From assembly GCA_937921685.1 (NCBI GenBank), contig CAKZUF010000004.1, positions 1 to 21,481 on the forward strand: 21,481 bases of DNA. The letters run 5' to 3'. The notes under the pieces are model-generated. The model had not been told where the DNA came from and did not search any database. It worked only from the letters and a program-made list of their open reading frames with translations. The stretch comes from an uncultured archaeon. GTDB lineage: Archaea; Thermoproteota; Nitrososphaeria_A; Caldarchaeales; Calditenuaceae. The translations under genes and the position numbers were made by a program. Shown here piece by piece: positions 30-21,481 of this stretch; position 1 is the stretch's first letter; each line of letters opens with the position of its first letter.

Positions 30-1062
30 ATGGATAAGTTTTTAGAGGCTTTGAGGATGGGTTGGAGAAGGGCTATGGATACCATCGAATTTGGAAAATG
101 CTGCATGGAAATGGAGTAGAGATATCGAGGTCAACCGCAAGACGATATTATTATAAGATATTTCCTGAGTGGGTGGGGAGGAGAGGAGCATGTCTTGACA
201 GGACCACTAGGATTAGAATCTTCAGTGAGATCAAAAGGCTGCGGATGATTGGATACTCGTATGGCAGAATAATAGAGGCGATAGAGGAGATGTACGGTGT
301 CAGGCTAAGTAAGTCGTTTGTCAGTAGGTGGTTAAGGGGAATACGCAGCCCATTCAGCGGTCGTAGAATACCGTCAATCGACTTCTTGAAGAAGACTCCC
401 GATTGCGGATATGTTATAGGCGTTGTTGCTGGTGACGGGTGGGCAATTAGAAGCAGAGAAGGCGACATGTGGATAGGTAGCAAAGCAAAGGACAGGGAGT
501 TCATTGAGGAGTTCGCTGAGTCTTTGGAAAGGTTCTCGGAAGGGCGCCGCCGAGGCCGATACCGGTATGGAAGGGGTTATTCCGAGTAGCATTCAGATCA
601 AAAGTTCTCTACGAGCTACTTAAAAAGCCAATCAAAATTGACAGAATAAGGCATTTAGTGGAGCACTGCGAGGACTGCAGGAGGGGTTTTCTAAAAGGAT
701 TCTTTGACAGCGAAGGCACAGTAGACAAGAACGGGTCTATACTATGCTTCAGTTCTGATAAAAAACTACTCAGCTATGTCAAGAGGCTTCTCAGCAATTT
801 AGGTATTGAAGCAACCGGGCCACATCTATATACGAAAAGAGGAGCCACAATCTTTGATAAAAAGAGGAGCAAGACATATCGAGCAAGAAATGACGCCTAC
901 CGCCTCTACGTCAGAGCGCGAGGCAGACTGAGATTCCACCAGTTCATAGGATTTACAATCGGGCGAAAACAACGACGACTCGAAGAATACCTCACAAGGC
1001 GAAGACTACTACCGGCTACTCAGCCAACCAAACCCTCCCTACTTTCCTCTCTCAACCTTTAA
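30..1062 (+). pseudogene. Free-standing LAGLIDADG-family homing-endonuclease-like gene with N-terminal tandem HTH-like units, split over three reading frames; it may extend upstream of the window
   Basis: ORF 62..589 carries 'GYVIGVVAGDGWA' (LAGLIDADG motif 1). ORF 658..1062 carries 'GFLKGFFDSEGT' (motif 2). The frame of ORF 658 is already open from 520 and reads KVLGRAPPRPIPVWKGLFRVAFRSKVLYELLKKPIKIDRIRHLVEHCEDCRRGFLKGFFDSEGT, continuing '...EFIEEFAESLE' from frame 2. Upstream, frame 0 (ATG at 30, open from base 3) reads MDKFLEALRMG. Joined to frame 2 'EKGYGYHRIWKML' this parallels the second unit 'EIKRLRMIGYSYGRIIEAI'. Confidence 0.75.
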
Positions 1063-4066: not shown

Positions 4067-5659
4067 ATGTCGAGGCCGATAATTGGTCGAGGAACATGGC
4101 TGGACAGGGTGGCGCATAGGCTTGTGGAGAGGGAGAAGAGGCTTGGTAGGAGCCTAGACCTGCTCTTGACCGAGAGCGGAGTAGCGGCCAGCGGAATCCC
4201 ACATATCGGGAACCTCTCAGACCCCGCCCGCGCCTACGGGGTAACCCTCGCACTCCGCGGCCTAGGGTACAGCTCGGAGATGATACTATTCGTCGACGAC
4301 ATGGACGGGCTTCGAAGCATCCCCCAAGGTCTCCCAAAAGAGCTTGAGGAGCACCTCCTCAAGCCCGTCTCAAGGATCCCAGACCCCTACGGCTGTCACC
4401 AAAGCTACGCCGAGCACATGGTCTCCATGATGACCGACCCCCTCGACCAGATCGGGATCGAGTACAGGTTGTATAACGCCCACGAGGTCTATGGGAGCGG
4501 AAAACTAGCCGGGATTGCTGCGGAGATATTAAGCAACGCTGGGAGAGTTGGAGAGGCGATAAAGACCCTAGTCGGCCAAGAGAAATTTATGGAGCAGCTT
4601 CCCTACTACCCTGTCTGCGAATCATGTGGCAGGATATACACAGGCAAGGCGATCGAGTTCGATAAGGACGGCTGGAGGGTGAGATACGTGTGCAGCGATA
4701 TCGAGATAAAGAAGAGGATGCACCGGGGATGCGGCTACGAGGGCTGGGCGAGCCTAAAGAATGGGAACGGCAAGCTCCCGTGGAAGGTCGAGTTCGCCGC
4801 CCGGTGGAAGCTACTCGACATCAGATTCGAGGCCTATGGAAAAGACCTCATAGACAGTGTGAAGGTCAACGACTGGGTCTCCAGAAACATACTCAACTTT
4901 GAGCCGCCTCTGCACGTCAAGTATGAGCACTTCATAGACGCCAGTAGGAGGAAGTTTTCAAAATCCGTGGGAAACGTATTCACACCACAGATGTGGCTCA
5001 GATATGCCCCGCCGGAGACCCTCCTCCTGCTGATGTTTAAGAGAAGCGTGGGCACCCGGATAGTGACGCCTGAACTGATACCTAGGCTTTGGGACGAAGT
5101 CGAGGAGCTCGAAGACATATACTTCGGGAAGACTAAGATACCAGACGAGCGTGTCAGAGCAAAACTACGCGGACTCTTCGAGTATATCTACCTCCTGAGG
5201 CCGCCCCAGAGCCTAAGGGCACATGCACCCTTTAAGCTACTCGCCGAGCTTGGGTCTCTGGCCCCTGGCGAGAACGTCCGCGAGTTCGTGGAGAAGAGGC
5301 TTCGAAGATACGGATACAAGGTCGACGAGTATCTCCTCGGGAAGGCTGAGAAGGCGAGGCTCTATGCCTTGGACTTCGGAGCAGTCCCCCGCGTCAAGGT
5401 TCAGGTGGAGCTAGAAGAGAACGAGAGAGAAGCTATTCAGGCCTTGATCGAGAGGGCCGGTAGGGCGGTGGACGGCGAGGAAGTCCAAGCAGCAATATTC
5501 GAGGAGGCGAGACGCAGGGGCATTAATCCGCCACAACTATTCTCAAAGATCTACCTCCTCCTTCTGGGGAGGCCTAACGGCCCTAGGCTTGGACCTTACC
5601 TGTTTGATATAGGTGTAGATAGACTTCGAGAGGCCTTGGCAGATCTATCCTCGAAATAA
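4067..5659 (+). CDS. lysK: Lysyl-tRNA synthetase, class I (archaeal type)
   Basis: HIGH-type motif 'SGIPHIGNLSD', KMSKS-type motif 'KFSKSVGN', and length about 530 aa. The ATG at 4067 (MSRPIIGRGTWLDR...) is preferred over the TTG at 4043 given in the track. Confidence 0.9.
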   Translation: MSRPIIGRGTWLDRVAHRLVEREKRLGRSLDLLLTESGVAASGIPHIGNLSDPARAYGVTLALRGLGYSSEMILFVDDMDGLRSIPQGLPKELEEHLLKPVSRIPDPYGCHQSYAEHMVSMMTDPLDQIGIEYRLYNAHEVYGSGKLAGIAAEILSNAGRVGEAIKTLVGQEKFMEQLPYYPVCESCGRIYTGKAIEFDKDGWRVRYVCSDIEIKKRMHRGCGYEGWASLKNGNGKLPWKVEFAARWKLLDIRFEAYGKDLIDSVKVNDWVSRNILNFEPPLHVKYEHFIDASRRKFSKSVGNVFTPQMWLRYAPPETLLLLMFKRSVGTRIVTPELIPRLWDEVEELEDIYFGKTKIPDERVRAKLRGLFEYIYLLRPPQSLRAHAPFKLLAELGSLAPGENVREFVEKRLRRYGYKVDEYLLGKAEKARLYALDFGAVPRVKVQVELEENEREAIQALIERAGRAVDGEEVQAAIFEEARRRGINPPQLFSKIYLLLLGRPNGPRLGPYLFDIGVDRLREALADLSSK

Positions 5660-5679
5660 TTTGTTTCGCGCTGTAGTGT

Positions 5680-7128
5680 CTATTCTGCGCTAATTTGGCC
5701 TAGCCTAATGTTTCTAAGACGGGCAGAAGGTCCTCCGAGCCAGACTGGTATACCCTGCATAGGGTCGCCTTTACCGCAGTACCCGGCGTAGAATTTTAGG
5801 TCCTTACCGAGCGCGTCTATGGCTGAGTAGAGGGCCTGAGTAGTCAGTTCTACGACAGGCTGATAGACCATGGCGCCCAGCTCTCCATCCCTGATGAGAT
5901 AGGCCTCGACACCGACATATCTCTGATTCCACCGCTTATCATCTATGTTCCACTCCATGTAGCTCTTCACGTATACGCCCTCCCGGATATCCTCGATAAG
6001 CTCCTCAAATGTGTGGTCGCCAGGCTTCATGTATGTGTTCGCCATCCGGACTATGGGCTCCCTGTTATAGTTGTTAGCCCGGGACGCCGCGTTGCTCTTC
6101 ACACCAAACTCGGGGGCAGTCTCACGGTTGTGGAGTAACTCCTTAATCACGCCGCGCTCGATCAGAACCCTCTCCGAGGCCTTAACACCCTCGTCGTCGT
6201 AGAGGTAGTAGCCAAAAGAGCCGGGGAGCGTGGGGTCGTCGACGATTGTAACAAGCTCAGAGCCAATCCTTGAGCCCAGATGCTCCCGAGTGATGTACGT
6301 CTCTCCTGCCTGCGCCGCCTCTCTGCCCAGCATTCTGTCAGCCTCTCCAGGATGCCCCGCAGACTCATGACACACGAGGCCGATGATCTCGGAGCCCAGC
6401 ACCACATCCATCTTCCCTTTAGGCGGCTCAACCGCCTTCCTAACCGCTTCAGACACGGCTGCCGCCTCCTCAGCCATCGTATCATCTATCCTCCACCTCT
6501 CAACTGCCTCCCAGCCTCTCGACTCACCTAGGTTGAGAAACCTCTGAAGACACCTGCCTTCCCCGAATATCGTGAATATGCAGTTAAGGGCTGATAGGGG
6601 CTTGTCTAAGTAGACGTCAGCTCCGTCCGTGTTCAGGACATGTTTCTCTAGACGGCCCAGCGTCATCTCAAACACTCTGGAGACAGCTTTGACTCCCCTT
6701 CTCTCAGCAGCCTCGACGATCTCTCCATCAGCCATCCTCAGGAGCTCGGCTTTATCCTCCGTCGCAACGTTCTCATGCTTAACGCGGGGCCTAACTATGA
6801 CCCGCGCCTTCCCCATAACCTCGTCGGACATGGACACTCCCTTGGAGAGCAGCCTAGCCGAGGCTTTGGCAAGCTCTACAGCCCTCTTTACAGCCTCAGA
6901 AACACCCCGCCTAGTCAGGTCTCCTGTGGAGCTGAAGCCGAGGGCCCTGTTGTAAAGAACACGCACACCCACGCCCCGCGAGACAGTCCGAGCAGAAACG
7001 TCAACAACGCCATTCCTTAAAACGAATGTCTCACCAACGTGGTTTTCAAACCTAGCCTCTGCGTAAGAGGCTCCCAGCCTAGTTGCGGTCTTTAAAGCGT
7101 AGCTTAATAATTCCTCCAACGGCGCCAT
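5680..7128 (-). CDS. tldD: TldD-family metalloprotease
   Basis: 482-aa ORF with the metal-binding motif 'HESAGHPGEADR' (HExxxH), an N-terminus 'LLSYALKTATRLGASYAEARFE' typical of TldD/PmbA proteins, and a C-terminal 'YCGKGDPMQGIPV' segment. TAG stop at 5680-5682. Confidence 0.85.
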   Translation of the reverse strand: MAPLEELLSYALKTATRLGASYAEARFENHVGETFVLRNGVVDVSARTVSRGVGVRVLYNRALGFSSTGDLTRRGVSEAVKRAVELAKASARLLSKGVSMSDEVMGKARVIVRPRVKHENVATEDKAELLRMADGEIVEAAERRGVKAVSRVFEMTLGRLEKHVLNTDGADVYLDKPLSALNCIFTIFGEGRCLQRFLNLGESRGWEAVERWRIDDTMAEEAAAVSEAVRKAVEPPKGKMDVVLGSEIIGLVCHESAGHPGEADRMLGREAAQAGETYITREHLGSRIGSELVTIVDDPTLPGSFGYYLYDDEGVKASERVLIERGVIKELLHNRETAPEFGVKSNAASRANNYNREPIVRMANTYMKPGDHTFEELIEDIREGVYVKSYMEWNIDDKRWNQRYVGVEAYLIRDGELGAMVYQPVVELTTQALYSAIDALGKDLKFYAGYCGKGDPMQGIPVWLGGPSARLRNIRLGQISAE

Positions 7129-7445
7129 CTTCTTCCTTCTAAACCCTCACCCTCGTTACTAATATTTTCTTCCATCTTGTTCAGCGCGTTGTTAACCTTC
7201 CGCTGGATTCCGAGCGCACGCATCCTAAGCTCTTCAAACAAGCTGATCGTGGAGGGGGAGAGCCGCGGGTCGAGGAGCAGGTTCTCGATCGTCTCTATGA
7301 CCTCGGAGATGTTGTTTGCAACCATTTCTAGCCGAGAGCCGTTATTGACCTGCTCCTCGAAGAAGTCCACTGTATCTTTAAGCTCTTCGTAGATTCTGTG
7401 TATCTGCTTAAGCGCCGTCATGCATTCTAAAAAAGTCCGACTCAA
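7104..7445 (-). CDS. Hypothetical small helical (coiled-coil-like) protein, overlapping the tldD start by 25 nt
   Basis: 113-aa ORF from a TTG start (an alternative ATG gives MTALKQIHRIYEEL...). It has a heptad-like charged/hydrophobic pattern and no recognisable motif. The Arg/Trp-rich tail 'GRRWRRWRNY' lies in the overlap with tldD. The opposite-strand ORF 7177..7392 looks like a shadow. Confidence 0.5.
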   Translation of the reverse strand: MSRTFLECMTALKQIHRIYEELKDTVDFFEEQVNNGSRLEMVANNISEVIETIENLLLDPRLSPSTISLFEELRMRALGIQRKVNNALNKMEENISNEGEGLEGRRWRRWRNY

Positions 7446-7513
7446 GCTATAAGTCTTTCCTAAAGCAGCGTAATGGTTTAATAACCTATAGCAATCTACA
7501 CTGAGAAGCGGAG

Positions 7514-8248
7514 TTGGATAAAGTCACGGTAGCAGAGCTCTATCCCATGCTCTGGGAGGTTGTTAGAGGAATGGGGAGCTACAACAGCAAGCGCGACCTA
7601 CTCGTTAAAGAGATCTTGGTAAAGCATCCGAGGATTACTCTCGACGAGCTTGCGCTGCAGCTAGGGGTTCTGAGGGGGGAGGCTCTAATATTGCTGAGGA
7701 GCCACCGGCTCTGGTACTACGAAGTGGAGGAGGAGTTAGAACTATCCAAGAACTTCACTCCAATATACGATGTGGGCGCTCTGGGGGGCACATTCGACGA
7801 GCTCCACGTAGGCCATATCGCTCTTCTTAACACCGCCTTTAGACTCTCGAAAAAGGTGATAATTGGTGTCACGAGCGACGAGTTTGCATCGAGGTTGAGA
7901 AAGGAGGGGCGGGTATCGCCGATGAGGGAGAGGGTTGAGGAACTTAGTAGAACTCTAGATAAGTATGGATGGTTATCGAGGGCTGAGATAACTCAGCTCA
8001 ACGACCCCTATGGTCCTCTGTTATCCGATGAGAGAATCAACGCATTGGTGACAGGCCCCATAACGCTTGACAGGGCTGAAGAGGCGGCGAGCCTCAGAGT
8101 TTCGAAAGGCCTGCCGCCAGTATCGCTTGAACTCTCCCCCCTTGTTCTCGCAGAGGACGGGAGACCCATCAGCAGCACTAGGGTTAGGCTAGGCGAGGTT
8201 GACAGGACTGGCAGACTCATAGCAGGCCGAATACCAACAAGACAATGA
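7514..8248 (+). CDS. coaD: Archaeal-type phosphopantetheine adenylyltransferase (cytidylyltransferase fold) with an approximately 85-aa N-terminal HTH-like extension
   Basis: 'GGTFDELHVGHIALL' is the (H/T)xGH nucleotidyltransferase motif, and 'ISSTRVRLG' is the C-terminal ISxxxxR motif. The N-terminal 'ITLDELALQLGVLRGEALILLRSH' looks like a winged-helix/HTH. TTG start at 7514. The 3' end overlaps the convergent gene by 32 nt (8217-8248). Confidence 0.75.
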   Translation: MDKVTVAELYPMLWEVVRGMGSYNSKRDLLVKEILVKHPRITLDELALQLGVLRGEALILLRSHRLWYYEVEEELELSKNFTPIYDVGALGGTFDELHVGHIALLNTAFRLSKKVIIGVTSDEFASRLRKEGRVSPMRERVEELSRTLDKYGWLSRAEITQLNDPYGPLLSDERINALVTGPITLDRAEEAASLRVSKGLPPVSLELSPLVLAEDGRPISSTRVRLGEVDRTGRLIAGRIPTRQ

Positions 8249-9068
8249 TCGAGAGGATGATGGAGAGCGTAACAGTCTTGGAGCTGAGCTTGTAAAATTT
8301 TTTACAAGCCAGTCCAACGTATGAGACCAGCCACAACCAAGAGAACACGGTGGCCAAGGCGCTCCAGGGCTCGCGGCTCAGAACCGGCTCACTCACGAAA
8401 CTGTAGCCGCTAAACTCTATCCGGTCCCATGAAAGCCTCTCAACCAGTATATCGCCCAAGCTTACAATCTGGTCAGAGACCCTAGCGGTTGCAGACTCTA
8501 TGAGGAGGGGGTGAGCGGGGTTTGAGGCGTTGTATACTAGCCGTGGAGACCGTAAGACCTGCACAGTAATCGTCAATGCCGACTCACTAGACCGCAGCAT
8601 TCCATCTATTCGCGCGTTCTCAAGCTTGACCTCGCTGACCTCCGCGTAGGTTATAGCCACATCGGTGGATGGCGATGGAATTAGGATGGGGAGTAGAAGC
8701 AGTGTCGCCACCGTGAAGGCGAAAAAGCCGTGCATAGTAGAGCTAAAAACTGGTATCAGGCTCCTCTTCTCCCTCCCCTTCAAATAAACGGTAATAGAGA
8801 ATACGCCGATAACCGCTAGAAACCCCATGCTCAGATATAGTGTAGCCAAAAAGACGGCCTCGGGGGCCTCGGTAATAGGAGGACGTGGCAGCTCTATTCC
8901 AGGTGAAGCGTAATCGACCCGCAGCTTCTCTGAGACGTAGTAAACAGAGGAGGCGATATGAGAGAGTAGGGCTGACAATAATATTATGACGCCTCTCCTA
9001 AACCTCGGATTCCCAGACATGGCCTCCGCTAGAGACAGCGGGTCAACAATTTCTCTAACACCCTTCAC
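8217..9068 (-). CDS. Hypothetical integral membrane protein
   Basis: 283-aa ORF (GTG at 9068; alternative ATG at about 9020 giving MSGNPRF...). It has several hydrophobic helices ('VIILLSALLSHIASSVYYV', 'AVFLATLYLSMGFLAVIGVFSITVYL', 'FFAFTVATLLLLPILIP', 'LSIILSIIVLLVFGLL') around a roughly 100-aa soluble segment. No recognisable family. Confidence 0.55.
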   Translation of the reverse strand: MKGVREIVDPLSLAEAMSGNPRFRRGVIILLSALLSHIASSVYYVSEKLRVDYASPGIELPRPPITEAPEAVFLATLYLSMGFLAVIGVFSITVYLKGREKRSLIPVFSSTMHGFFAFTVATLLLLPILIPSPSTDVAITYAEVSEVKLENARIDGMLRSSESALTITVQVLRSPRLVYNASNPAHPLLIESATARVSDQIVSLGDILVERLSWDRIEFSGYSFVSEPVLSREPWSALATVFSWLWLVSYVGLACKKFYKLSSKTVTLSIILSIIVLLVFGLL

Positions 9069-9203
9069 GTCGACACCACTTCGATCAGCAACTCTCCACC
9101 TCTGCCCCTACTCTAAAATCTTCCCATAGCATAGGGCGACACAGATAAAAGTAGCGTTCACGTCCCCACATTCTAAAGAATAGGCGAGACGTTGTAGTGT
9201 TAT

Positions 9204-10745
9204 TCAGCCTCTTCTAACAAACAATATGGCTAAAACGCCTGCCAGCGCCACTATGATTAGAAGATTGAACATGGCTGTAGTGGCGAGTGCTGGTATGGAT
9301 TGAACCTGAATAGCTGATGGGGTGAGCTTGACGGAGTAGATTATCGCAGAGTTTTCTCCGGCAAATAAGATAGTTGAGGTGGACCACACAGCTACATAGG
9401 CGGTTGAGACGAATATTCCAGACATCCACCCGGTTAGCACAGCGCGGAGCGAGATTCTTGTAGTCGGCTCGGTTTTGGTTTGCTGTATCCCGAAGACCTC
9501 CCAGACAGGAAAGACTGGGAATAGCTTTACAAACAGCAACAGGATCAGCGCTAGGCCCGCGAAAGAGCCTGCGGTGAGTAAAAACTCCACATATGTAGGC
9601 GTATATTGGGAGACGGCTGACTGGACGGTCGGGAGACCTTCATGGTGCATCAGCCCCGGCAAAACTATTAACACTCTCTTAACCCACATGGCTGGGAGGA
9701 CTACTGCAGACATTGCAACGACCGCTTTATAGGTTCTTATCCTCGGTATAAGCAAAACAACACTAGCCAGTATAAGAGAGGCCAACACATACCATGTTAG
9801 AGGGCTGTAAGGCCCAGTCCATGAAAACTCTGAGACTGTAATGTCTTCAGATACTGCCGCGTATCTGATGGTGAATGTCTCTACGAGCATAAAGTAGAGA
9901 TAGCCCAGCAAGAAGACCACAAGTATCTTTCCCAGATTAATGAAGGTTCTATCGGGGATTACTTCGCGGAGAGCAAGTCTCCATCTGATGATGGCCGAGG
10001 TTATTATGACGAGTGATAAGCCTGATAGAAGCGCGCCTATTATGAAGTATGGACCCATGATTGCGTCGTTCCATGTTGGGACAGACTTCATCCCGCCAAA
10101 TATCCAGCCCGTAACCGTGTGCATCATGACCGCAACAGGCACTGCAGCTATTGCGAGGATTTTAAGCCCCGACTCAAGTAAATGGAGCTGGTCTTTATCC
10201 CCCCGCCAGTCATAGCGTAGGAGGTTATGGAGCCATGAAAGACGGCCCTCCTTCTCTGCCATGACCGCTATATCGGGTATAAGGGCTACGTGTAGATAGC
10301 CTAGGCCTGTGAGAAGATAGAAAAGAAGGACGATTACATCCCATCCGACCGGCGACTGTATCCTGCCGAAAAGAGGTATGTAAGCGATGGCGCGGAAGAA
10401 TTGCCCCACATCGAACAATATGTTAAGGGCGGCCATCAACAGGCTTCCAACAGTTATGACTTCAGCTATCCTCGTTATCGGTTTGCCCCATTCCAGGTTG
10501 AGCAGCCTCATAACCGATGAGATGAAGGTACCGGACATGCTTATGCTTATGAAGAAGACGAAATTAGCCATGTAAACCCCCCAGACAACGGGCCTGTTAA
10601 GTCCTGTGACTGTGAGCCCCTGAGTCAGCTGTTGAAGCCATGCAAACAAGGCTAGAAGAATTATGAGTGCCAGCACTCCTAGAGTGATGTATGCTAATCT
10701 ACCGAAGCTTCCAGCGCTATAGTACTTGTTGAAGCCGACCTCCAT
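9204..10745 (-). CDS. NrfD/PsrC-family polytopic membrane (quinol-interacting) subunit of the molybdopterin oxidoreductase, with extra C-terminal helices
   Basis: 513-aa highly hydrophobic ORF. 'GLTVTGLNRPVVWGVYMANFVFFISISMSGTFIS' resembles the conserved NrfD N-terminal helices. Its ATG at 10745 directly abuts the TAG stop of the Fe-S subunit gene (10746-10748). Confidence 0.7.
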   Translation of the reverse strand: MEVGFNKYYSAGSFGRLAYITLGVLALIILLALFAWLQQLTQGLTVTGLNRPVVWGVYMANFVFFISISMSGTFISSVMRLLNLEWGKPITRIAEVITVGSLLMAALNILFDVGQFFRAIAYIPLFGRIQSPVGWDVIVLLFYLLTGLGYLHVALIPDIAVMAEKEGRLSWLHNLLRYDWRGDKDQLHLLESGLKILAIAAVPVAVMMHTVTGWIFGGMKSVPTWNDAIMGPYFIIGALLSGLSLVIITSAIIRWRLALREVIPDRTFINLGKILVVFLLGYLYFMLVETFTIRYAAVSEDITVSEFSWTGPYSPLTWYVLASLILASVVLLIPRIRTYKAVVAMSAVVLPAMWVKRVLIVLPGLMHHEGLPTVQSAVSQYTPTYVEFLLTAGSFAGLALILLLFVKLFPVFPVWEVFGIQQTKTEPTTRISLRAVLTGWMSGIFVSTAYVAVWSTSTILFAGENSAIIYSVKLTPSAIQVQSIPALATTAMFNLLIIVALAGVLAILFVRRG

Positions 10746-11561
10746 CTATCTCCCCTCCTGGAGATATATCACCTTCGGATTTGTCCCCAGCTCCTCAAAC
10801 AGTCTAAAAGCCCTCTTACTCTTAGCCATCCGCGAAGCCAAGCTCTCTGGGTCGTCGAGGTCCCCGAAGATTAGTGCTCTACCCGTGCAACTCCTGACAC
10901 ATGACGGCAGATAGTTGAGCTCTCTGAAGTCGAAGTCGATCCACAAATCCTCGGGATCAGCTCTCTCAACCTCGTCGCTTTTCATGATAAGTCTCCGCAT
11001 TAGAGTATCCACAGCTTTACTGACCTTCTCATCTAGGCTCATATTGTTTTTGACAACCTTAGCTATGGCCGGCGGAACGTTTCCAGAACTTATATCCCTC
11101 TTTAAACGCATAATTCTGTGGACACAGAAAGTGCATTTCTCTACAACCCCTGCAGGCCTCACTGGCACGGTTGGATTGAGATAGTCTAAATAGGTGTCCG
11201 GCCATGACGGTTCACGCCAGTTGAAGTATCTGACACCGTAGGGGCAGGCGACCATACAGAGCCTGCAGCCGATGCACCTGTTATAGTCTTGATCTACTAT
11301 ACCGTCTTCGCGCCTGAATGTTGCGCCGACTGGGCAGACCTAGACGCATGGAGGGCTGTCGCAGTGCATGCAGGGTCTTGGCAGCATGGAGACCCGCCCA
11401 TCGACGTTTTTAACTACTAGGTCCATCCAGGAGATTTGACGACCCGCTGCTTGCTCAGCTTCACTCCCTATAGGCACATTATTCTCTGCTTTACATGCAA
11501 CTACGCAGGCTTGACAGGCCGTGCATTTATCCAAGTCTATAACCATACCCCACCTGACCAT
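10746..11561 (-). pseudogene. PsrB/DmsB-type four-cluster [4Fe-4S] electron-transfer subunit, interrupted by one in-frame TAG at 11340-11342
   Basis: Track ORFs 11340..11576 and 10746..11255 share a frame, and the 84 nt between them contain no stop. The joined reading is MVRWGMVIDLDKCTACQACVVACKAEN...CMHCDSPPCV[TAG][36 protein letters not shown]...KCTFCVHRI...[20 protein letters not shown]. The likely ATG at 11561 overlaps the psrA stop (TGATG). Confidence 0.8.
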
Positions 11562-13996
11562 CACGCACCACCCCACTTAGAAATCCTGACGCGCGTCGAT
11601 GAGAAACCAGCCGAGCCTGACAGCCTTTCCCGCCTCTCGACAAGGATTGTGTTGACATTAGTTCCCGTCTTCGAGGCCCATCTGCCATAGGCTTTCCGGC
11701 CTATTCCGAAGGGCATGACAACGACCTCAGGCATTGAGGTTGGATGTGTCTTCGCTCTGGTAATTAAACTTCCAGCAGGCGACTCTACCACGACTAAGTC
11801 ACCATCATTTATACCGAGCTTCTTAGCAGTCTCTGGATGAATCTCCACCCAGTTACGCCAACCCATTCTTACTTGCGGTCCAAAACTAGCTAAAGCCCAG
11901 GGAGAGTTTGTACCTCTCCCCTCCGCATGCATTATCGACTTGTATGTAACTAGGATGAAGGGGTATTGGGATGCGTCTCCAGCGAATTCAGGCTCCTCAT
12001 AATGTGGTAGGAAAACCTCTACACCTCTTGCCTTAATGTTTAGATTGTCAAGCACCATCTCATACGCATGCTCAAACTCTACCCCCTTCTCTTTTGCGAT
12101 TTTCTGGGCTAAACTTGTAAGCTTCTCCTCCAAGGTCTTAGAGTGGAACTCAAACCTTCCAGTCTTTGTCCGCAACTCGTGTCTATAGTCTTCGAAACTG
12201 TAGGGTGGATCTGCCCAGAAGCCATATTTCAACACATTAGCCCAGAATTCTTCGAAACTGTTCATTCGGGAGACGGGGACGGGCCCAACCTTTCCACGTT
12301 TACTCTCCCAGATCCCACTCCATCTAAACTTTATGACCTCTTCAAAACTATTCCATGGAAAAGCCTCTGCTACGACGCCACCAATCCTCTCCGCCAGCTC
12401 TATTATCACGTCTCCTGTATTCGCGGTATTGTAGAGGGGCTTAACAACGGGCTGACGTATTGAGGCAACAGGGTAGCCGAGACTTGGGTAAATAACGTCG
12501 TCCATCCAGCGTTCGAGATATGTGTGGTCAGGCAGGACTACGTCTGCATAATAGGCTGTTGTCTCATCCATGAATGGGGAAGTGCTGACTATGAATGGTA
12601 TCTTCTCCAAAGCCTTCTCCCAAACAGCTATGTTGGGGGATGAGAATACTGGATTGGTATAGTAGGTCATCAAAACCTCTACTGGGTATGGTCTACCCTC
12701 AACGACCGACTCGGCAACCTGCTGATATACGTTCTTCGCGAATGGATACCTCTCTGTTCCTGCATAGTCTACGCGTATTTTGGCCAGCCCCTCTTCAGCT
12801 ACCTTATCAAGAGTAAGCTGCGGCCATTCTTTGAAAGGAGGCGACTTCTGCACGATCACACCACCCTTTCTACCTATGCTGCCGACCAGCGCGTTTAGGG
12901 CATGGATGGCCATGTAGTTGTAGACGCCATTAGGCTGCATCATAGCTCCCCTTTGGCCGGCGGCGATAGCCGGCCTAGTCGTCGCGAACTCGTGGGCTAT
13001 TCTTTCAATAGTCTCTGAAGAAACACCAGTAACACTCTCAGCCCACTCCACCCCATATTTGGAGAGAACCGTCTCCGCAAACTCTTCAAAACCATACGTG
13101 TGGTCCTCGACAAACTCCCTGTCATATAGCTTATCTCTGATTATCACATGCGCTATCCCGAGAGCTAAGGCTCCGTCAGTACCAGGTCTTATTCTGATCC
13201 ACTCGTCAGCCTTTATGGCAGTAGTCGAGTATCTTACATCCACTACAACTATCTTGGCCCGAATAGGCCTCTCACCCCTAATGTGGCCATAGCTTCTTAG
13301 AAGCCTCGTCGTCGGCCTCCATGCCTCTATGAAGCCTGCTCCGAAGAGAAGCAGGTAGTTAGCGTTTTGCCAGTCATAGCCCAAGTAAGCTTTGACACCT
13401 TGCGTAAGGTAATGCGCAATTACTGCGCCATCAGAGCATATACTACTATGGCCCACGCGGTTTGGTGTTCCGAAGGCGGTTGTGAATCTCGAGATGAAGT
13501 CTCCCATGTTGCCTCGGACTCTGCCATCAAGCCAGACAAAACGCTCAGGTGTCCCGGCCCTACGCAGCTCAGATAGTCTTGAAGAGACTAGGTCGATGGC
13601 CTCTCTCCAGCTGACCTCCCTAAATCCAATTTTACCTCTCTCGCCAACCCTGACGAGAGGTCCGGTGATTCTATCGGGATCGTATAGTATTTGGAGGCCG
13701 TAGTGCGCCTTAGGGCATATCGACCCTCTATTAATGGGGTGGAGAGGGTTACCCTCTATCTTGACGGCTCTACCCTCAGCTACCCGCACTGCTATCCCAC
13801 ATCCGGCTGGGCACTGCAGACACGTGCTCGCCACCCAGCTATCTTCAACAAACCTATAGTCAGACCTAGCGTGTAGTATTTCTGTCTGGAGGCTGAGAAG
13901 CGTCTCTCTCGGCGCCGCGATTAGTGAACCTATTGCGCTGGCAGCTGCGGTGGCTGTAACCACCCTCATGAAGTCCCTTCTGCTGACGCCTGACAT
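11561..13996 (-). CDS. Molybdopterin (bis-MGD) oxidoreductase catalytic subunit, Psr/Phs/Ttr/Arr-like, Tat-exported
   Basis: Twin-arginine signal 'MSGVSRRDFMRVVTATAAASAIG', N-terminal Fe-S motif 'CLQCPAGCGIAVRV', candidate Mo-ligand region 'GHSSICSDG', and about 810 aa. The ATG at 13996 is preferred over the TTG at 14011. The substrate cannot be assigned from sequence alone. Confidence 0.9.
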   Translation of the reverse strand: MSGVSRRDFMRVVTATAAASAIGSLIAAPRETLLSLQTEILHARSDYRFVEDSWVASTCLQCPAGCGIAVRVAEGRAVKIEGNPLHPINRGSICPKAHYGLQILYDPDRITGPLVRVGERGKIGFREVSWREAIDLVSSRLSELRRAGTPERFVWLDGRVRGNMGDFISRFTTAFGTPNRVGHSSICSDGAVIAHYLTQGVKAYLGYDWQNANYLLLFGAGFIEAWRPTTRLLRSYGHIRGERPIRAKIVVVDVRYSTTAIKADEWIRIRPGTDGALALGIAHVIIRDKLYDREFVEDHTYGFEEFAETVLSKYGVEWAESVTGVSSETIERIAHEFATTRPAIAAGQRGAMMQPNGVYNYMAIHALNALVGSIGRKGGVIVQKSPPFKEWPQLTLDKVAEEGLAKIRVDYAGTERYPFAKNVYQQVAESVVEGRPYPVEVLMTYYTNPVFSSPNIAVWEKALEKIPFIVSTSPFMDETTAYYADVVLPDHTYLERWMDDVIYPSLGYPVASIRQPVVKPLYNTANTGDVIIELAERIGGVVAEAFPWNSFEEVIKFRWSGIWESKRGKVGPVPVSRMNSFEEFWANVLKYGFWADPPYSFEDYRHELRTKTGRFEFHSKTLEEKLTSLAQKIAKEKGVEFEHAYEMVLDNLNIKARGVEVFLPHYEEPEFAGDASQYPFILVTYKSIMHAEGRGTNSPWALASFGPQVRMGWRNWVEIHPETAKKLGINDGDLVVVESPAGSLITRAKTHPTSMPEVVVMPFGIGRKAYGRWASKTGTNVNTILVERRERLSGSAGFSSTRVRISKWGGA

Positions 13997-14897: not shown

Positions 14898-15821
14898 ATG
14901 TCCGCAGCCACGCTGCTTAGAGAGATTCTGAGGCCTATATGGGTAGCCGCTAGGCATGTATTCTTTAAGCCCTACACCTATAAGTATCCATACGAGGAGA
15001 TACCTAATCTTCCCAGTGAGAACTACAGGTTTGACCCCAAGCAGGGGTTCGCCTACCCGGGTTTTAAGGGCAGGCACTTACTAATCCTTGAGAAGTGCAC
15101 CGGCTGCAGCCTCTGCGACATAGCTTGCCAAAACATTGCGGAGGCCATAACGATGGTCTACGCGTTTGACGTAATCATCGAGGCTGAAGAGAAGGATTAT
15201 AACGAGTTCGCCTCTGGGAGGGGGGTGCTCTCAGAGCTTCTCGACCGTGTGGTGGAGGGGTTCACTAGGCCTCTCGTGGAGCCGGGGCCCGGGACTGGGG
15301 GGTCGCATCCGCTTTTGGGATTTTTTGCCGATTTGAAGAGAGTCGTCAAGGCTGATGGCAAGGCTTCGATAAGGCTTAATTCCGACCCGATATGGGAGCA
15401 CAACTCGGCTACACTATACAGCAACTACCTCGACGAGCAATTCAGCCAGCTTGAGAAGAGTGGCTGGAGCTTCAGCATACTAGAGGACAAGTTCCCAGAC
15501 GCCATTGTCTACGGGGCCAGCAAGAATGGGTGTAGCGTCAAGATAATAATCCAGAAGCGCGACCTCAAATACCCCCAGAACAAGAAGTCCTATTTCCCAC
15601 AGGTAGACTATGGGAGGTGCGTCTTCTGCGGCTTCTGTGTCGACGCCTGTCCGTTCTACGCGCTAGAGATGACCCCAGACGTGGAGCTCTCATCTATTTC
15701 CCGCCAAGGCTTGGTCTATAACCCCTACATGCTGGCCGGCCCCAAGATCTCCACCAACCCACCCTCCACAAACCCGATAGACGCCTTTTACGGATGGCTG
15801 AGGGCCAAGCTCGGCCGGTGA
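14898..15821 (+). CDS. nuoI: NuoI-like (complex I subunit I / 2x[4Fe-4S] ferredoxin) protein with a large internal insertion
   Basis: The N-terminus 'FFKPYTYKYPYEEIPNLPSENYRF...GFKGRHLL' matches the NuoI lead-in. First cluster motif 'CTGCSLCDIAC', second 'CVFCGFCVDACP'. The motifs are 163 residues apart, against a few tens in canonical NuoI. Confidence 0.75.
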   Translation: MSAATLLREILRPIWVAARHVFFKPYTYKYPYEEIPNLPSENYRFDPKQGFAYPGFKGRHLLILEKCTGCSLCDIACQNIAEAITMVYAFDVIIEAEEKDYNEFASGRGVLSELLDRVVEGFTRPLVEPGPGTGGSHPLLGFFADLKRVVKADGKASIRLNSDPIWEHNSATLYSNYLDEQFSQLEKSGWSFSILEDKFPDAIVYGASKNGCSVKIIIQKRDLKYPQNKKSYFPQVDYGRCVFCGFCVDACPFYALEMTPDVELSSISRQGLVYNPYMLAGPKISTNPPSTNPIDAFYGWLRAKLGR

Positions 15822-17507: not shown

Positions 17508-18584
17508 TTAGGGCCAGAGCGTTATAGCCGAGTACTCTGAGATGAGTGAGATTCCCGCCGTAATTATCAGATTCACAAAAGCTAGGGGTATGAGGTATTT
17601 CCATCCGAGGTCTAGGACCTTCTCTATGGTGAGCCGCGGGTAGGCGCCTCGCAGCAGTGCGACGAACGTGAACAATATTAGGCCCTTAAGTATGATCCAG
17701 AAGGGTGCCGAGATGCTTTCGGGTAGGCCGGGGATTGGCGGACCGAGCCAGCCGCCGAGATATAGTATTGCTCCGAGGAAGCAGAATGCTAGAACTTTCT
17801 CGAACATGGCGAGCTGAATCATCAGGAAGTAGACGCCTGAATACTCGGTCTGCCAGCCGAAGACGATTTCACCCTCCGCAGTCGGTATGTCGAAGGGCAG
17901 CCTCTCAGTCTCGGCCAACAAGGTGATGATGAACACTATGAAGCCGAGAACCTGTGTGACTGCTAGTGGAACAACCGCCTGGGCCTCAACGATCTTCTCT
18001 AGATTAAGTGTCCTCGTAGACAGGACAACGCCTGTCAGGGCTAGGAAGAGGGGCACCTCGTATCCGAAGAGCTGGAGCGCTATTCTGGACATTCCTATGA
18101 AGGGGTATTTGCTCCTTGAGGCATATCCTGCCAGCACTATTGGTATAGGGGATAATGCTGCGACTAGGAAGAATAAGAGGAGGCCAATCTCTGAGGGGTA
18201 GATTATCCATCCCGCCCCGAAGGGGAGGAATGCATATAGCAACAGTGACAGGATTAATGCGAGGCAGGGCATGAGGACGAAGAGAGGCCTGTTCACACCC
18301 TCGGGGATTATCCTCTCCTTTGAGAGAAACTTGATGGCGTCAGCTATGAGCTGGAGGACACCGGCTACTTTCCCAACGTGAAGTGGACCTATCCTGAGTG
18401 AGACGCGGGCGAAGAGCTTTCTCTCAAACCAGACTGCAAACATTCCTAGCAGGGTGCTGAAGAGCGCGCCGGGGAATATGGCTGCCTTGATGAATGGCTC
18501 GCTATAGATGAAGCGTATCAGCTCCTGGATTAGAGGCGGCATAGAACTATACAGTTGGACAAATGCTTGGACCGGGTCTATCAA
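17508..18584 (-). CDS. nuoH: NADH-quinone oxidoreductase (complex I-like) subunit H
   Basis: 'FERKLFARVSLRIGPLHVGKVAGVLQLIADAIKFLSKE' and 'ETERLPFDIPTAEGEIVFGWQTEYSG' are hallmark NuoH/ND1 motifs. The protein is polytopic, and its start overlaps the nuoA stop by 4 nt. Confidence 0.92.
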   Translation of the reverse strand: MIDPVQAFVQLYSSMPPLIQELIRFIYSEPFIKAAIFPGALFSTLLGMFAVWFERKLFARVSLRIGPLHVGKVAGVLQLIADAIKFLSKERIIPEGVNRPLFVLMPCLALILSLLLYAFLPFGAGWIIYPSEIGLLLFFLVAALSPIPIVLAGYASRSKYPFIGMSRIALQLFGYEVPLFLALTGVVLSTRTLNLEKIVEAQAVVPLAVTQVLGFIVFIITLLAETERLPFDIPTAEGEIVFGWQTEYSGVYFLMIQLAMFEKVLAFCFLGAILYLGGWLGPPIPGLPESISAPFWIILKGLILFTFVALLRGAYPRLTIEKVLDLGWKYLIPLAFVNLIITAGISLISEYSAITLWP

Positions 18585-18988
18585 CCTCCTCCACCTCTCT
18601 CGAGCCTCTGCTTCAGGGAGGGGAGCTGCGTCGACGCATATATCGAGCCGGCAGTGATTACAGCCAAGATCAATAACCCACGTATTAGGCTCTCACCAGC
18701 CCGCAACATGTCCAAAACAACGATGAAGGCAATGACGGCGAAGACTGCGTAGGCGATGTAGATGATGACGTAGGGGAAGTATTCGATGGGAAATGGGGCC
18801 ACTCTGGTCGGTATCGGTGTTTGCCCGGACTCGAAGAGCATCCTCTTGACCCGGGACGGCTTCTTAGGGGCTATCAGAACCGAGACTATGTAGAAAATTG
18901 GAGGAGCGATGATTGTGAGGATTAGATATAGTAGCAGCGTCCAAAGCGCCGTATCCAGAGCGGCAGGACTCAACACGTCAATCAGCAA
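18581..18988 (-). CDS. nuoA: NADH-quinone oxidoreductase (complex I-like) subunit A
   Basis: 'FESGQTPIPTRVAPFPIEYFPYVIIYIAYAVFAVIAF' matches the NuoA/ND3 'ECG...F...FY' core. There are three hydrophobic helices. A TATA-like 'GTGTATAAATCG' (minus strand, about 18998-19009) suggests a start at or near the GTG at 18976. Confidence 0.7.
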   Translation of the reverse strand: MLIDVLSPAALDTALWTLLLYLILTIIAPPIFYIVSVLIAPKKPSRVKRMLFESGQTPIPTRVAPFPIEYFPYVIIYIAYAVFAVIAFIVVLDMLRAGESLIRGLLILAVITAGSIYASTQLPSLKQRLERGGGG

Positions 18989-19049: not shown

Positions 19050-19280
19050 CTACTCTACCTTCTCGAATGGGTCGAGGCCGGCGAGGGCTCTGAGCTCGAG
19101 GATGCGTCTTTTCAGATATTCAACCTCCTCCACACTGGGCTCGCGGGCCTCTGATCCAGAGGCAAGCCTCGCCTTCAGTCCAGCCCACTTGTACGCCAGC
19201 TCCTTCACATCCTCCTCCGTCAAATACTCCTCGAATATCCGCTTCGAGATCTCTCTAAACTCCTCAGCCGGGTCGCTCAT
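19050..19280 (-). CDS. Hypothetical small acidic helical protein (76 aa), translationally coupled to aspS
   Basis: Its ATG overlaps the aspS TGA (4-nt ATGA overlap at 19277-19280 per the ORF track). Composition is charged and helical. No motif recognised. Confidence 0.5.
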   Translation of the reverse strand: MSDPAEEFREISKRIFEEYLTEEDVKELAYKWAGLKARLASGSEAREPSVEEVEYLKRRILELRALAGLDPFEKVE

Positions 19281-20599
19281 GGCACGAGCCTGAACCTGTC
19301 CCTTGGAAAGAGTATGACATCCCTTATGTTGGTACGCCTCGTGATGACCATTATTAGCCTCTCAAACCCGAGCCCCCAGCCGGCGTGGACAGGCATGCCG
19401 TAATCATATACCGCCACATGGTGTTTAAAGCTCTCGGGGTTAAGCCCCTGCTCCTGCAGCCTCTGCCTGAGGAGAGCGGGGTCTGATATCCTCGTCCCAC
19501 CCGAAGCTAGTTCGAGCCACTGGTACATCAGGTCAAAGGACTCGGAGACCTGCGGGTTGTTAGGGTCGGGCTGGATGTAGAAGGGCTTTATGGCTGTTGG
19601 GAAGTGGGTGATGAAGTAGAACCCCGTGTGCCTCTTGGCAAGATACCTCAGGTCTGGGGTCTCCAAGTCGCCTCCCCAGCTCTTCGGATGCCCAAGCTCC
19701 GCAAGCTCCTTCAAGGCCTCGTCATAGGTTATCCGCTTGAAAGGGGTTTTGGGGGGTCGGAGTGAGACCCCGAGGAGATCGAGCTCCCTCTGCCTCTCCT
19801 CCAAAACCCTTTTGAAGACGTGGGCAACCATCCCCTCAAGAACCTGCATAACACCTTCATAGTTCATGAAGGCAGCCTCTATGTCGACTGAAGTGAACTC
19901 GCTGACATGCCTTCTCGTATGTGAAGCCTCAGCTCTAAAGAATGGCCCGATCTCAAAGACACGTTCAAAGACGGTGACTAGCTCCTCCTTGTATAGCTGG
20001 GGGCTCTGGGCAAGATAAGCCGCCTTCCCGAAGTAGTCCACCTTGAAGAGGGCAGCCCCGCCCTCAGTCGCTGTGGCTATGATCTTAGGAGTCCTAACCT
20101 CCACAAATCCCTGCCCACGGAGATATTCACGTATAGCATCAAAGACCGTGTCAGCTATCATGAAGATAGCCGTATTCACGGGTTTTCTAAGGTCTAGTAT
20201 CCTGTGGTTAAGACGCGTCGTCATGGACGCTGGAACCTTACCGGTCACGTCGTAGGGGAGTTTCTCTACGGCCTTGGCAACCACTTCAATCCTCTCACCC
20301 TTCACCTCGACACCCATCCTCGACTGTGGAGCTACACGCACAGTCCCCCAGACCCTGACAGCCGATTCACGGGTCAAACCATCTAGAGCAGCCGAGAGCG
20401 CACTATCAGCACCCACGCGGCTAAACACAACTTGACAGAGGCCCGAGCTATCCCTCAAGACTATGAAGACCAGAGACCCAAGGTCGCGTATCTCATGGAT
20501 CCAACCCTGAAGGACTACACGCCGGCCGTCAAGCTCAGGCCTAACCATTCCGGAGCGTATCTGTTCAAAGCCAGCCTCAGACTCTGCGTTTCCGGCCAT
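19277..20599 (-). CDS. aspS: Aspartyl-tRNA synthetase, archaeal/eukaryal type (class IIb)
   Basis: N-terminal OB-fold 'VVLQGWIHEIRDLGSLVFIVLRD', motif 2 'FEIGPFFRAE', 'GGTRISD', and motif 3 'GLGFERLIMV'. The ATG at 20599 (MAGNAESE...) gives about 440 aa. The track's 48-aa upstream extension is low-complexity and overlaps a neighbouring decayed frame. Confidence 0.9.
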   Translation of the reverse strand: MAGNAESEAGFEQIRSGMVRPELDGRRVVLQGWIHEIRDLGSLVFIVLRDSSGLCQVVFSRVGADSALSAALDGLTRESAVRVWGTVRVAPQSRMGVEVKGERIEVVAKAVEKLPYDVTGKVPASMTTRLNHRILDLRKPVNTAIFMIADTVFDAIREYLRGQGFVEVRTPKIIATATEGGAALFKVDYFGKAAYLAQSPQLYKEELVTVFERVFEIGPFFRAEASHTRRHVSEFTSVDIEAAFMNYEGVMQVLEGMVAHVFKRVLEERQRELDLLGVSLRPPKTPFKRITYDEALKELAELGHPKSWGGDLETPDLRYLAKRHTGFYFITHFPTAIKPFYIQPDPNNPQVSESFDLMYQWLELASGGTRISDPALLRQRLQEQGLNPESFKHHVAVYDYGMPVHAGWGLGFERLIMVITRRTNIRDVILFPRDRFRLVP

Positions 20600-21175
20600 A
20601 TCGTCGGAGTACAGGCCTCTTACCGGCCCTTGACTCAGCCTCTTCCGCACCCTCCCCTCCCGCCCCACTCTGCTTCTTTCAAGCTTAACTGATAAAGGTG
20701 TTGGTGTTGAGGGGTTTATAACTGTGTGGCCTTCAGTCCTCAAACCCTATAGTCCCTTCAGGCTCATAGGGTTCAAACTTTGTATAAATAGTGAGCTGTT
20801 TCTCGATGAGATATGTGTTTTTAATCGCCCATCTTTTTATCTCGCCGAGATAGATACTCTTCACGGCCGTCTCTAACCCCTCTCTCAGATATTCGATACA
20901 ATATCCTGCGGTATTCTCTCGAGGTAGTAGTCCGTCCCCTCCTCAATCTATTGGAGATGTTCAGGACTGATGAAATCCACCACCACTAGGTAACTCTCCT
21001 CTATCTTCTTCAGGCCGGGTCTTCATGGTGATGGCGCAGGTAGATGTATAGGTCGTCGTACGTCTCAGAAAAAGAGTCAAGCCTAACCTGACCCTGCATG
21101 TGAAAATGCTCCCTCCACAAACCCCACGGCACCTCCAAGTCCCGGGAGGAGGGCCGCCATAACGGGCAAGAGGGG

Positions 21176-21481
21176 ATGGTGAGAAGACAATAGCCTACGT
21201 CGACGTTGGCTTCAGAGACGGTAAGGCACACACGGTACTGCTGAAGAATGAGAGGGGTGGAGGAGTTTAGGAGGGTTAGAAGCCTATTAGAACTATTAAA
21301 CCTCCAGGTAAGCGAAGTCTATGTAGATTCACTGACGTTTAGGATAATCCCGGAGCTGAGGACATTGACTGAGCATGGTGTCAAGGTCTTCTATTTACGA
21401 GATTTGAGACTGTTAAGGGTCTTTAGAGACGCAAACAAGGTGGTGAAGAGTGATGAAAATGATGCCAGATTACTGTCCCTG
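21176..21481 (+). mobile_element. Probable 5' part of an IS110-family (DEDD/RuvC-like) transposase gene, frameshifted and truncated by the window edge
   Basis: The frame open from the ATG at 21248 to the window end reads ...EVYVDSLTFRIIPELRTLTEHGVKVFYLRDLRLLRVFRDANKVVKSDENDARLLSL. The 'K(S/T)D..DAR.L' segment and spacing resemble the IS110 N-terminal domain. Just upstream in another frame (21190-21267) 'IAYVDVGFRDGKAHTVLLKNERG' resembles the 'IGIDxxK' first acidic motif. This rests on remembered family motifs only. Confidence 0.4.

Follow-up and report, generated by a model that had tools for sequence, protein, structure and literature searches.

Four-cluster iron–sulfur (Fe–S) proteins of the NarH/PsrB type hold their [4Fe-4S] clusters in an interlaced manner, in which each cluster takes its fourth ligand from a partner cysteine group, group I pairing with group IV and group II with group III. 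The four-cluster subunits of the complex iron–sulfur molybdoenzymes (CISM), among them NrfC, PsrB, DmsB, ArrB, QrcC and DsrO as well as the Fe–S domain of ActB, are alike in their four cysteine groups, in the Pfam family Fer4_11 and in their place between a molybdopterin subunit with a twin-arginine translocation (TAT) signal and an NrfD-type subunit. In this study, a gene sharing these features was analyzed in a stretch of 21,481 nucleotides (hereafter the window) from an uncultured thermophilic hot-spring archaeon of the Calditenuaceae (Caldarchaeales), namely the whole (positions 1 to 21,481) of contig CAKZUF010000004.1 in the GenBank assembly GCA_937921685.1. The reading frame of this gene is interrupted once, by an amber codon at position 74 (TAG-74), which is probably a genuine and very recent nonsense mutation in the chromosome of a Caldarchaeales population.

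The original prediction, made from the sequence of the window alone, described one Fe–S gene split by a single in-frame amber codon, and its coordinates and frame agree with the listing of open reading frames (ORFs) and with translation. ORFs 11340..11576 (78 aa, GTG start) and 10746..11255 (169 aa, ATG start) lie in the same frame of the minus strand, and the single-frame translation of 11561..10746 contains one internal stop, at codon 74, in the context CMHCDSPPCV*VCP (Table 1). The further claim that the downstream ligands are kept in a long open frame also holds: 197 sense codons follow TAG-74 up to the terminal TAG at 10748..10746, and 16 of the 16 cysteines of the four ferredoxin-type groups are encoded (C13/16/19/23, C64/67/72/76, C96/99/102/106 and C143/146...C221/225). 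The groups have the canonical order and spacing (CxxCxxCxxxC, CxxCx4Cx3CP, CxxCxxCxxxCP and CxxC...CxxxC) and occupy columns that vary little or not at all among the aligned homologues. Since the read-through product is 94% identical to intact 271-aa proteins along its entire length (100%; E = 4.8e-178), the disrupted frame is far beyond chance. The window does not carry the single uninterrupted frame of a four-cluster protein, and the locus is a disrupted member of that family.

The public protein collection carries the gene as two separate calls, P0121 (73 aa) and P0122 (169 aa). That gene callers annotate two ORFs is what could be said for a functional split gene, the 73-aa and 169-aa products of which would form a two-piece Fe–S subunit. 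However, the first in-frame start codon 3' of TAG-74 is Met103, at 11255, with no in-frame start codon between the two, and thus no separately initiated C-terminal piece would contain Cys76, 96, 99 or 102; residues 75–102, with these four cysteines, are in neither of the two products. In addition, no relative is split at this point. A gene that functions in two pieces is refuted by the sequence, and its chance is vanishingly small.

Two sets of relatives were compared, a close set of 22 fetched orthologous loci from Caldarchaeales (73–94% amino-acid identity) and a wide set of 168 homologous loci. The Fe–S gene is uninterrupted in all 22 close loci. Alignment of orthologous loci had been named in advance as a check, and it gave Gln at codon 74 in 17 of the 22 and Ala in the other five, never a stop. 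The Gln codon is CAA in the 16 nearest loci (86–94% identical), which include L001–L008 and L170–L173, and CAG in one locus, L009 (82% identical), while Ala is encoded by GCC or GCG in L010 and L089–L092 (73–75% identical). An in-frame stop in the Fe–S gene was found in none of the 168 homologous loci, across which position 74 is occupied by K (96), R (16), Q (14), A, S and F (nine each), Y (four) and also by L, T, P, H and N; on this alignment it is a tolerant, non-ligand position. In the 90% protein cluster, the seven members besides the two fragments from the window are all unsplit and have Q. The finding that had been named beforehand as weakening both the pseudogene and the readthrough interpretations, namely two conserved split genes in relatives, came out negative, and the relatives carry one intact gene. 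The most similar protein, P0001 (94% amino-acid identity, E 4.8e-178), is an intact 271-aa protein of a Caldarchaeales ('Aigarchaeota', Nitrososphaerota) metagenome-assembled genome (MAG), followed by P0002 from Candidatus Caldarchaeum sp. (86%), P0003 from Calditenuaceae (80%) and P0004 and P0005 (74% each).

Synteny of the window with loci L001 and L002 extends beyond 10 kb, with a shared order of glycosylase, catalytic subunit, Fe–S subunit, NrfD subunit, 283-aa ORF, cytidylyltransferase-like protein, TldD, class-I LysRS and P-type ATPase. The nucleotide identity of the window to L001 is approximately 87.5%, and the two therefore represent sister species rather than strains. No conspecific intact copy was found in GTDB representative genomes or in JGI metagenomes, the best matches in which are 82% and 75% identical.

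Sequence comparison with these relatives shows that the ancestral residue at codon 74 was Gln. The original prediction noted that TAG is one substitution away from CAG; this fits the Gln present in 17 of the 22 relatives and the CAG codon of L009, but the CAA of the nearest relatives differs from the TAG of the window by two substitutions. The Gln74 codon would have drifted synonymously from CAA to CAG and then undergone a C-to-T transition from CAG to TAG. Such a path is likely because the window favours CAG for Gln, with 93 of 127 Gln codons as compared with 34 for CAA. The nonsense step corresponds to C to T at position 11342 of the minus strand, i.e. G to A on the plus strand; which of the two substitutions came first is inferred.

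Whether the TAG is present in the DNA of the organism bears on a second explanation, a sequencing or assembly artefact in which the organism has CAG (Gln) and the consensus T is wrong. Such an error would require only a single-base difference, the minimal change, in an Fe–S gene without any other defect, and the source is a metagenome-assembled contig that was judged from assembled consensus sequences. However, the contig ERR9287632_4777092 (L169, 1939 bp) from Logan, a per-run assembly of ERR9287632 by a pipeline different from that of the deposited assembly, is identical to positions 10735..12673 of the window with 0 mismatches, TAG included, and encodes both Fe–S fragments. A second Logan contig of the same run (L174) covers positions 5938..9256 and shows three differences in 3319 positions (8563, 7425 and 6448), and the two assemblies are thus not copies of each other; the two pipelines agree on the TAG and yet differ elsewhere. 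One of the three differences alters residue 169 of the 283-aa ORF. The sampled population is polymorphic at about 0.1%, i.e. at strain level. Furthermore, no intact allele of more than 94% identity was found in a collection of 5.8 billion protein clusters, which includes the Logan assembly of this run, and no frameshift or other broken gene was found among the approximately 19 ORFs of the contig as compared with L001, which shows a clean assembly. An artefact of the deposited assembly or of polishing is very unlikely, and for sequencing and assembly errors taken together we see only a small probability. In the literature searched, no paper naming the run ERR9287632 was found.

The age of the stop can be judged from the selection acting on the gene, expressed as the ratio of non-synonymous to synonymous rates (dN/dS) between the window and L001. 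This ratio is 0.058 for the whole Fe–S gene, 0.066 for codons 1–73 and 0.053 for codons 75–271, as compared with 0.084 for the catalytic subunit, 0.156 for the NrfD subunit and 0.05–0.16 for five neighbouring control genes. With L003 as the outgroup, 28 synonymous and four non-synonymous changes in the Fe–S gene, the stop being counted among the latter, fall on the branch of the window, and 20 synonymous and ten non-synonymous changes fall on that of L001. Beyond the stop, only three to six amino-acid changes can be assigned to the branch of the window, each of which affects a variable position, and no indels or frameshifts in the gene were found on this branch. A Poisson bound limits the neutral part of the window branch to at most about 1–8%, a dS-equivalent of 0.003–0.02, and the resulting bound on the age of a pseudogene is of the same order as the polymorphism within the sample (∼0.1%). 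Downstream of the TAG, the ratio is at the level of the upstream part and of housekeeping genes; since no relaxation of constraint is detectable there, a very young stop is strongly supported. The locus thereby shows what is expected of a recent nonsense allele, namely a disabling change absent from close relatives and little or no secondary decay. Changes specific to the window are conservative in both flanking subunits, catalytic and membrane (e.g. V>I and K>R). Relaxed selection on the NrfD gene was considered and rejected, as the 34 non-synonymous and 31 synonymous changes on the window branch do not differ significantly from the 23 and 42 on the L001 branch (Fisher p = 0.077).

A change of the genetic code, or the insertion of pyrrolysine (Pyl), would make TAG a sense codon in this archaeon. 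Its only support is the in-frame TAG itself, together with the fact that Pyl decoding is known in several archaeal lineages. However, TAG terminates five of the 19 ORFs in the window, five of 13 genes in L001 and nine of 20 in L003, and its share of the stop codons in the window and the relatives is 26–45%. The original prediction listed tldD, the Fe–S gene, the LLM gene and a 76-aa ORF as ending in TAG, which is correct for all four, and argued from them against genome-wide reassignment; this argument is strengthened by the orthologues, since three of the genes ending in TAG, tldD (482 aa), LLM (363 aa) and Fe–S (271 aa), match their orthologues exactly in length and therefore stop where these stop. 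Furthermore, no relative has TAG at the site, and position 74 is a variable non-ligand position without a plausible need for Pyl. No tRNA genes or Rfam families were found in the 21,481-nucleotide window, nor any pyl genes or PYLIS-like structure. The only PylS-like score was traced to a 30-bit class-II synthetase cross-match in the AspRS gene, and pyrrolysine was hence rejected. Within the window, TAG as a reassigned sense codon is effectively refuted, and a code change or Pyl insertion is highly improbable as an explanation of the interrupted frame.

A further explanation is functional readthrough, in which UAG-74 would be decoded by a near-cognate tRNA (tRNA-Gln with the anticodon CUG, restoring Gln) or by a suppressor tRNA, so that the complex keeps working and the gene remains under selection. 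The 197 downstream codons show no relaxed constraint (dN/dS 0.053) and the operon is otherwise intact, both of which would be expected from readthrough, and a near-cognate Gln, Lys or Tyr would be acceptable at a codon that is tolerant among the 168 homologues. However, programmed recoding would be expected to conserve the stop at the site, and TAG is found there in none of the 168 relatives. No significant RNA structure was found 3' of the stop, as the 116 nucleotides from the TAG have a folding z of -1.0, which is equalled by 34 of 200 shuffles; the orthologous stretch of L001 folds with z = +0.5. The +4 base after the TAG is G, which is not known as a leaky stop context. An efficient suppressor would be costly because TAG ends five of the 19 ORFs, three of them at ends conserved among orthologues. 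Moreover, the youth of the stop suffices to explain why no decay is seen, the polymorphism of ∼0.1% being of the same order as the upper bound on the age of the pseudogene. In Archaea, the only readthrough that has been shown is the insertion of selenocysteine (Sec) and Pyl (PMC8211752). The literature searched on Aigarchaeota with polysulfide reductase or pyrrolysine contained nothing specific to this operon. Functional readthrough in general is thus unlikely, and there is only a very slim chance that a standard tRNA, for which tRNA-Gln is the most plausible candidate, decodes UAG-74 often enough to matter physiologically and to keep the complex functional and under selection. If this were true, it would be the first documented case in an archaeon of stop-codon readthrough with a canonical amino acid sustaining an essential-domain protein. 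The original prediction had left three possibilities side by side, a very recent stop, a sequence error or readthrough; the first of these is strongly supported, an assembly error is largely excluded, and readthrough found no positive support.

On the preferred explanation, a recent nonsense mutation, normal termination at TAG-74 would release a fragment of 73 residues without Cys76 and groups III and IV. Because this fragment would comprise only group I and three cysteines of group II, and the fourth cysteines come from the partner groups, no cluster would be fully ligated. The NrfD subunit and the molybdopterin subunit would no longer be linked by an electron wire, and from the architecture of the family we infer a null or strongly hypomorphic allele. 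The operon would then carry a newly arisen loss-of-function allele and be a nascent pseudogene; this allele may still segregate in the population and would be too recent for secondary decay in the Fe–S gene or in the two flanking subunit genes.

Several points weigh against this interpretation. The Logan assembly probably derives from the same reads as the deposited MAG, which leaves room for systematic errors in sequencing or for an intact allele of low frequency. The species was found in one sample only, and the allele may consequently be fixed or segregating. The absence of secondary decay would be equally expected if codon 74 were translated, and the loss of function is a prediction from the architecture of the family.

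The best explanation is an ordinary one, a fresh nonsense allele that involves no altered genetic code, and it opens no long-standing question. In annotation, the Fe–S gene at present appears as two small ORFs (P0121 and P0122) and should instead carry a flag as a pseudogene or disrupted gene; a functional molybdoenzyme respiratory complex should be attributed to the MAG only if further evidence is obtained. The locus also provides a clean case of the youth of a nonsense allele, with an age close to the within-population diversity and zero secondary decay, and it illustrates that an independent per-run assembly can tell real nonsense alleles from errors of a deposited assembly.

The genes on both sides of the Fe–S gene are intact. 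The catalytic subunit carries the twin-arginine signal MSGVSRRDFMRV, has no internal stops and is equal in length to its orthologue in L001, and the orthologues of the NrfD subunit comprise 514 aa. The tight coupling on both sides that the original prediction had described is evident from the 1-nucleotide overlap of the catalytic-subunit TGA with the Fe–S ATG (TGATG at 11561) and from the NrfD ATG (10745), which is located directly 3' of the terminal TAG of the Fe–S gene. The same geometry occurs in relatives, e.g. in the genes 4384–6819, 6819–7634 and 7635–9179 of L001, and the synteny and overlaps with the molybdopterin and NrfD genes are kept in L001–L008 and L170–L173. A GGAGG motif inside the end of the Fe–S gene (Table 1) could, from its position, allow the NrfD subunit to be translated independently of the coupling, and the membrane subunit may still be made. 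The Pfam NrfD domain covers only residues 46–366 of the membrane subunit, which has a hydrophobic C-terminal extension of approximately 150 aa that is conserved in the 514-aa relatives. Recurrent inactivation of the operon was considered for L170 (GCA_038852825.1), where the catalytic subunit is called as 336 + 518 aa, and was rejected: the break is a run of N, a scaffold gap at positions 1346..1445 of L170, and not a mutation.

Table 1. Features of the three-gene operon, with positions in the window.
Feature	Position	Strand	Details
Catalytic Mo/W-bis-PGD subunit, 'PsrA-like', 811 aa	11561..13996	minus	Pfam Molybdop_Fe4S4, Molybdopterin, Molydop_binding
Fe–S subunit gene, NrfC/PsrB/QrcC-type four-cluster	11561..10746	minus	271 codons; sole interruption is TAG at codon 74
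Fe–S subunit, codons 1–73	11343..11561	minus	Cys group I and first three Cys of group II
Amber TAG, codon 74	11340..11342	minus	T = 11342, A = 11341, G = 11340
Fe–S subunit, codons 75–271 and terminal TAG (10746..10748)	10746..11339	minus	Cys76, groups III and IV
GGAGG Shine–Dalgarno-like motif	10754..10758	minus	8 nt upstream of NrfD ATG, inside Fe–S gene end
NrfD-type integral membrane quinone-interacting subunit, 513 aa	9204..10745	minus	Pfam NrfD 1.5e-27; intact

With regard to family assignment, the Fe–S subunit matches Pfam Fer4_11, and among solved structures it matches 6f0k_B (the Fe–S domain of ActB; 3.7e-44), 6cz7_B (ArrB; 1.8e-37) and 2vpw_B (Thermus PsrB; 3.1e-34), which decides its membership in the fold. 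Against NCBIfam, it scores 242 bits (7.5e-72; cut-off 400) for QrcC and 204.6 bits (1.5e-60; cut-off 200) for DsrO; it is below the equivalog cut-offs of QrcC, TtrB, ArrB and NrfC and only marginally above that of DsrO. By its sequence it is a bona fide member of the CISM four-cluster family that is not assignable to a named enzyme. The catalytic subunit reaches 447 bits for ArrA (cut-off 1600), 363 for PhsA (NF012032; cut-off 694) and 305 for QrcB (cut-off 440), and hence does not attain a Psr/Phs equivalog score. Of the 'PsrB-type' label in the original prediction, the membership in the four-cluster family stands, but the attribution to Psr specifically does not, as the catalytic subunit is far below all of these curated equivalog cut-offs. 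The Fe–S subunit has a lineage-specific insertion of approximately 45 residues (in the region of about residues 147–220), which separates the CxxC half of Cys group IV from its CxxxC half, relative to bacterial homologues of 225–235 aa; it is common to the Caldarchaeales orthologues and a few proteins of 272–290 aa.

Several other observations were made elsewhere in the window. At one end of the contig, two adjacent plus-strand ORFs, 62..589 and 658..1062, occupy different frames and each show similarity to LAGLIDADG_3 (E 0.0076, with weak HTH matches, and E 2.8e-13, respectively), and the syntenic place of 62..1062 in L001 is occupied by an NT5C gene instead. This pair may be a degraded or frameshifted homing endonuclease or mobile insertion. 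In a 307-aa protein encoded at 14898..15821, NuoI-like 4Fe-4S motifs are confined to the C-terminal third (residues about 203–280); no family was assigned to its N-terminal part of approximately 200 aa, and its gene lies apart from nuoH and nuoA at 17508..18988. The gene at 19277..20743 encodes a non-discriminating AspRS, the longest ORF of which comprises 488 aa from a TTG codon; its true start is probably further downstream because the family model matches only from residue 66. The last ∼730 bp of the window (20750..21481) contained no ORF of at least 75 aa, tRNA, Rfam match (E up to 0.1) or repeats.

In comparison with known systems, the archaeal methylamine methyltransferases that contain Pyl resemble the present gene only in having an in-frame UAG, and they differ in that the UAG of the window is not conserved at its site, is accompanied by no Pyl machinery or PYLIS-like element in the window and occurs where TAG is an abundant terminator. 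From the CISM four-cluster subunits, the gene differs by the TAG at codon 74 and by the ∼45-residue insertion in group IV. The PsrABC complex of Thermus thermophilus is alike in architecture, with a TAT-exported molybdopterin subunit, a four-cluster protein and an NrfD-type anchor, whereas the catalytic subunit of the window is below the PhsA cut-off and scores higher on ArrA, and the membrane subunit has 513 aa with a C-terminal extension of ∼150 aa. The nascent pseudogenes and segregating nonsense alleles of prokaryotes are alike in the point nonsense change, the constrained gene, the intact relatives and the accessory respiratory module, and on present evidence the locus described here does not differ from them.

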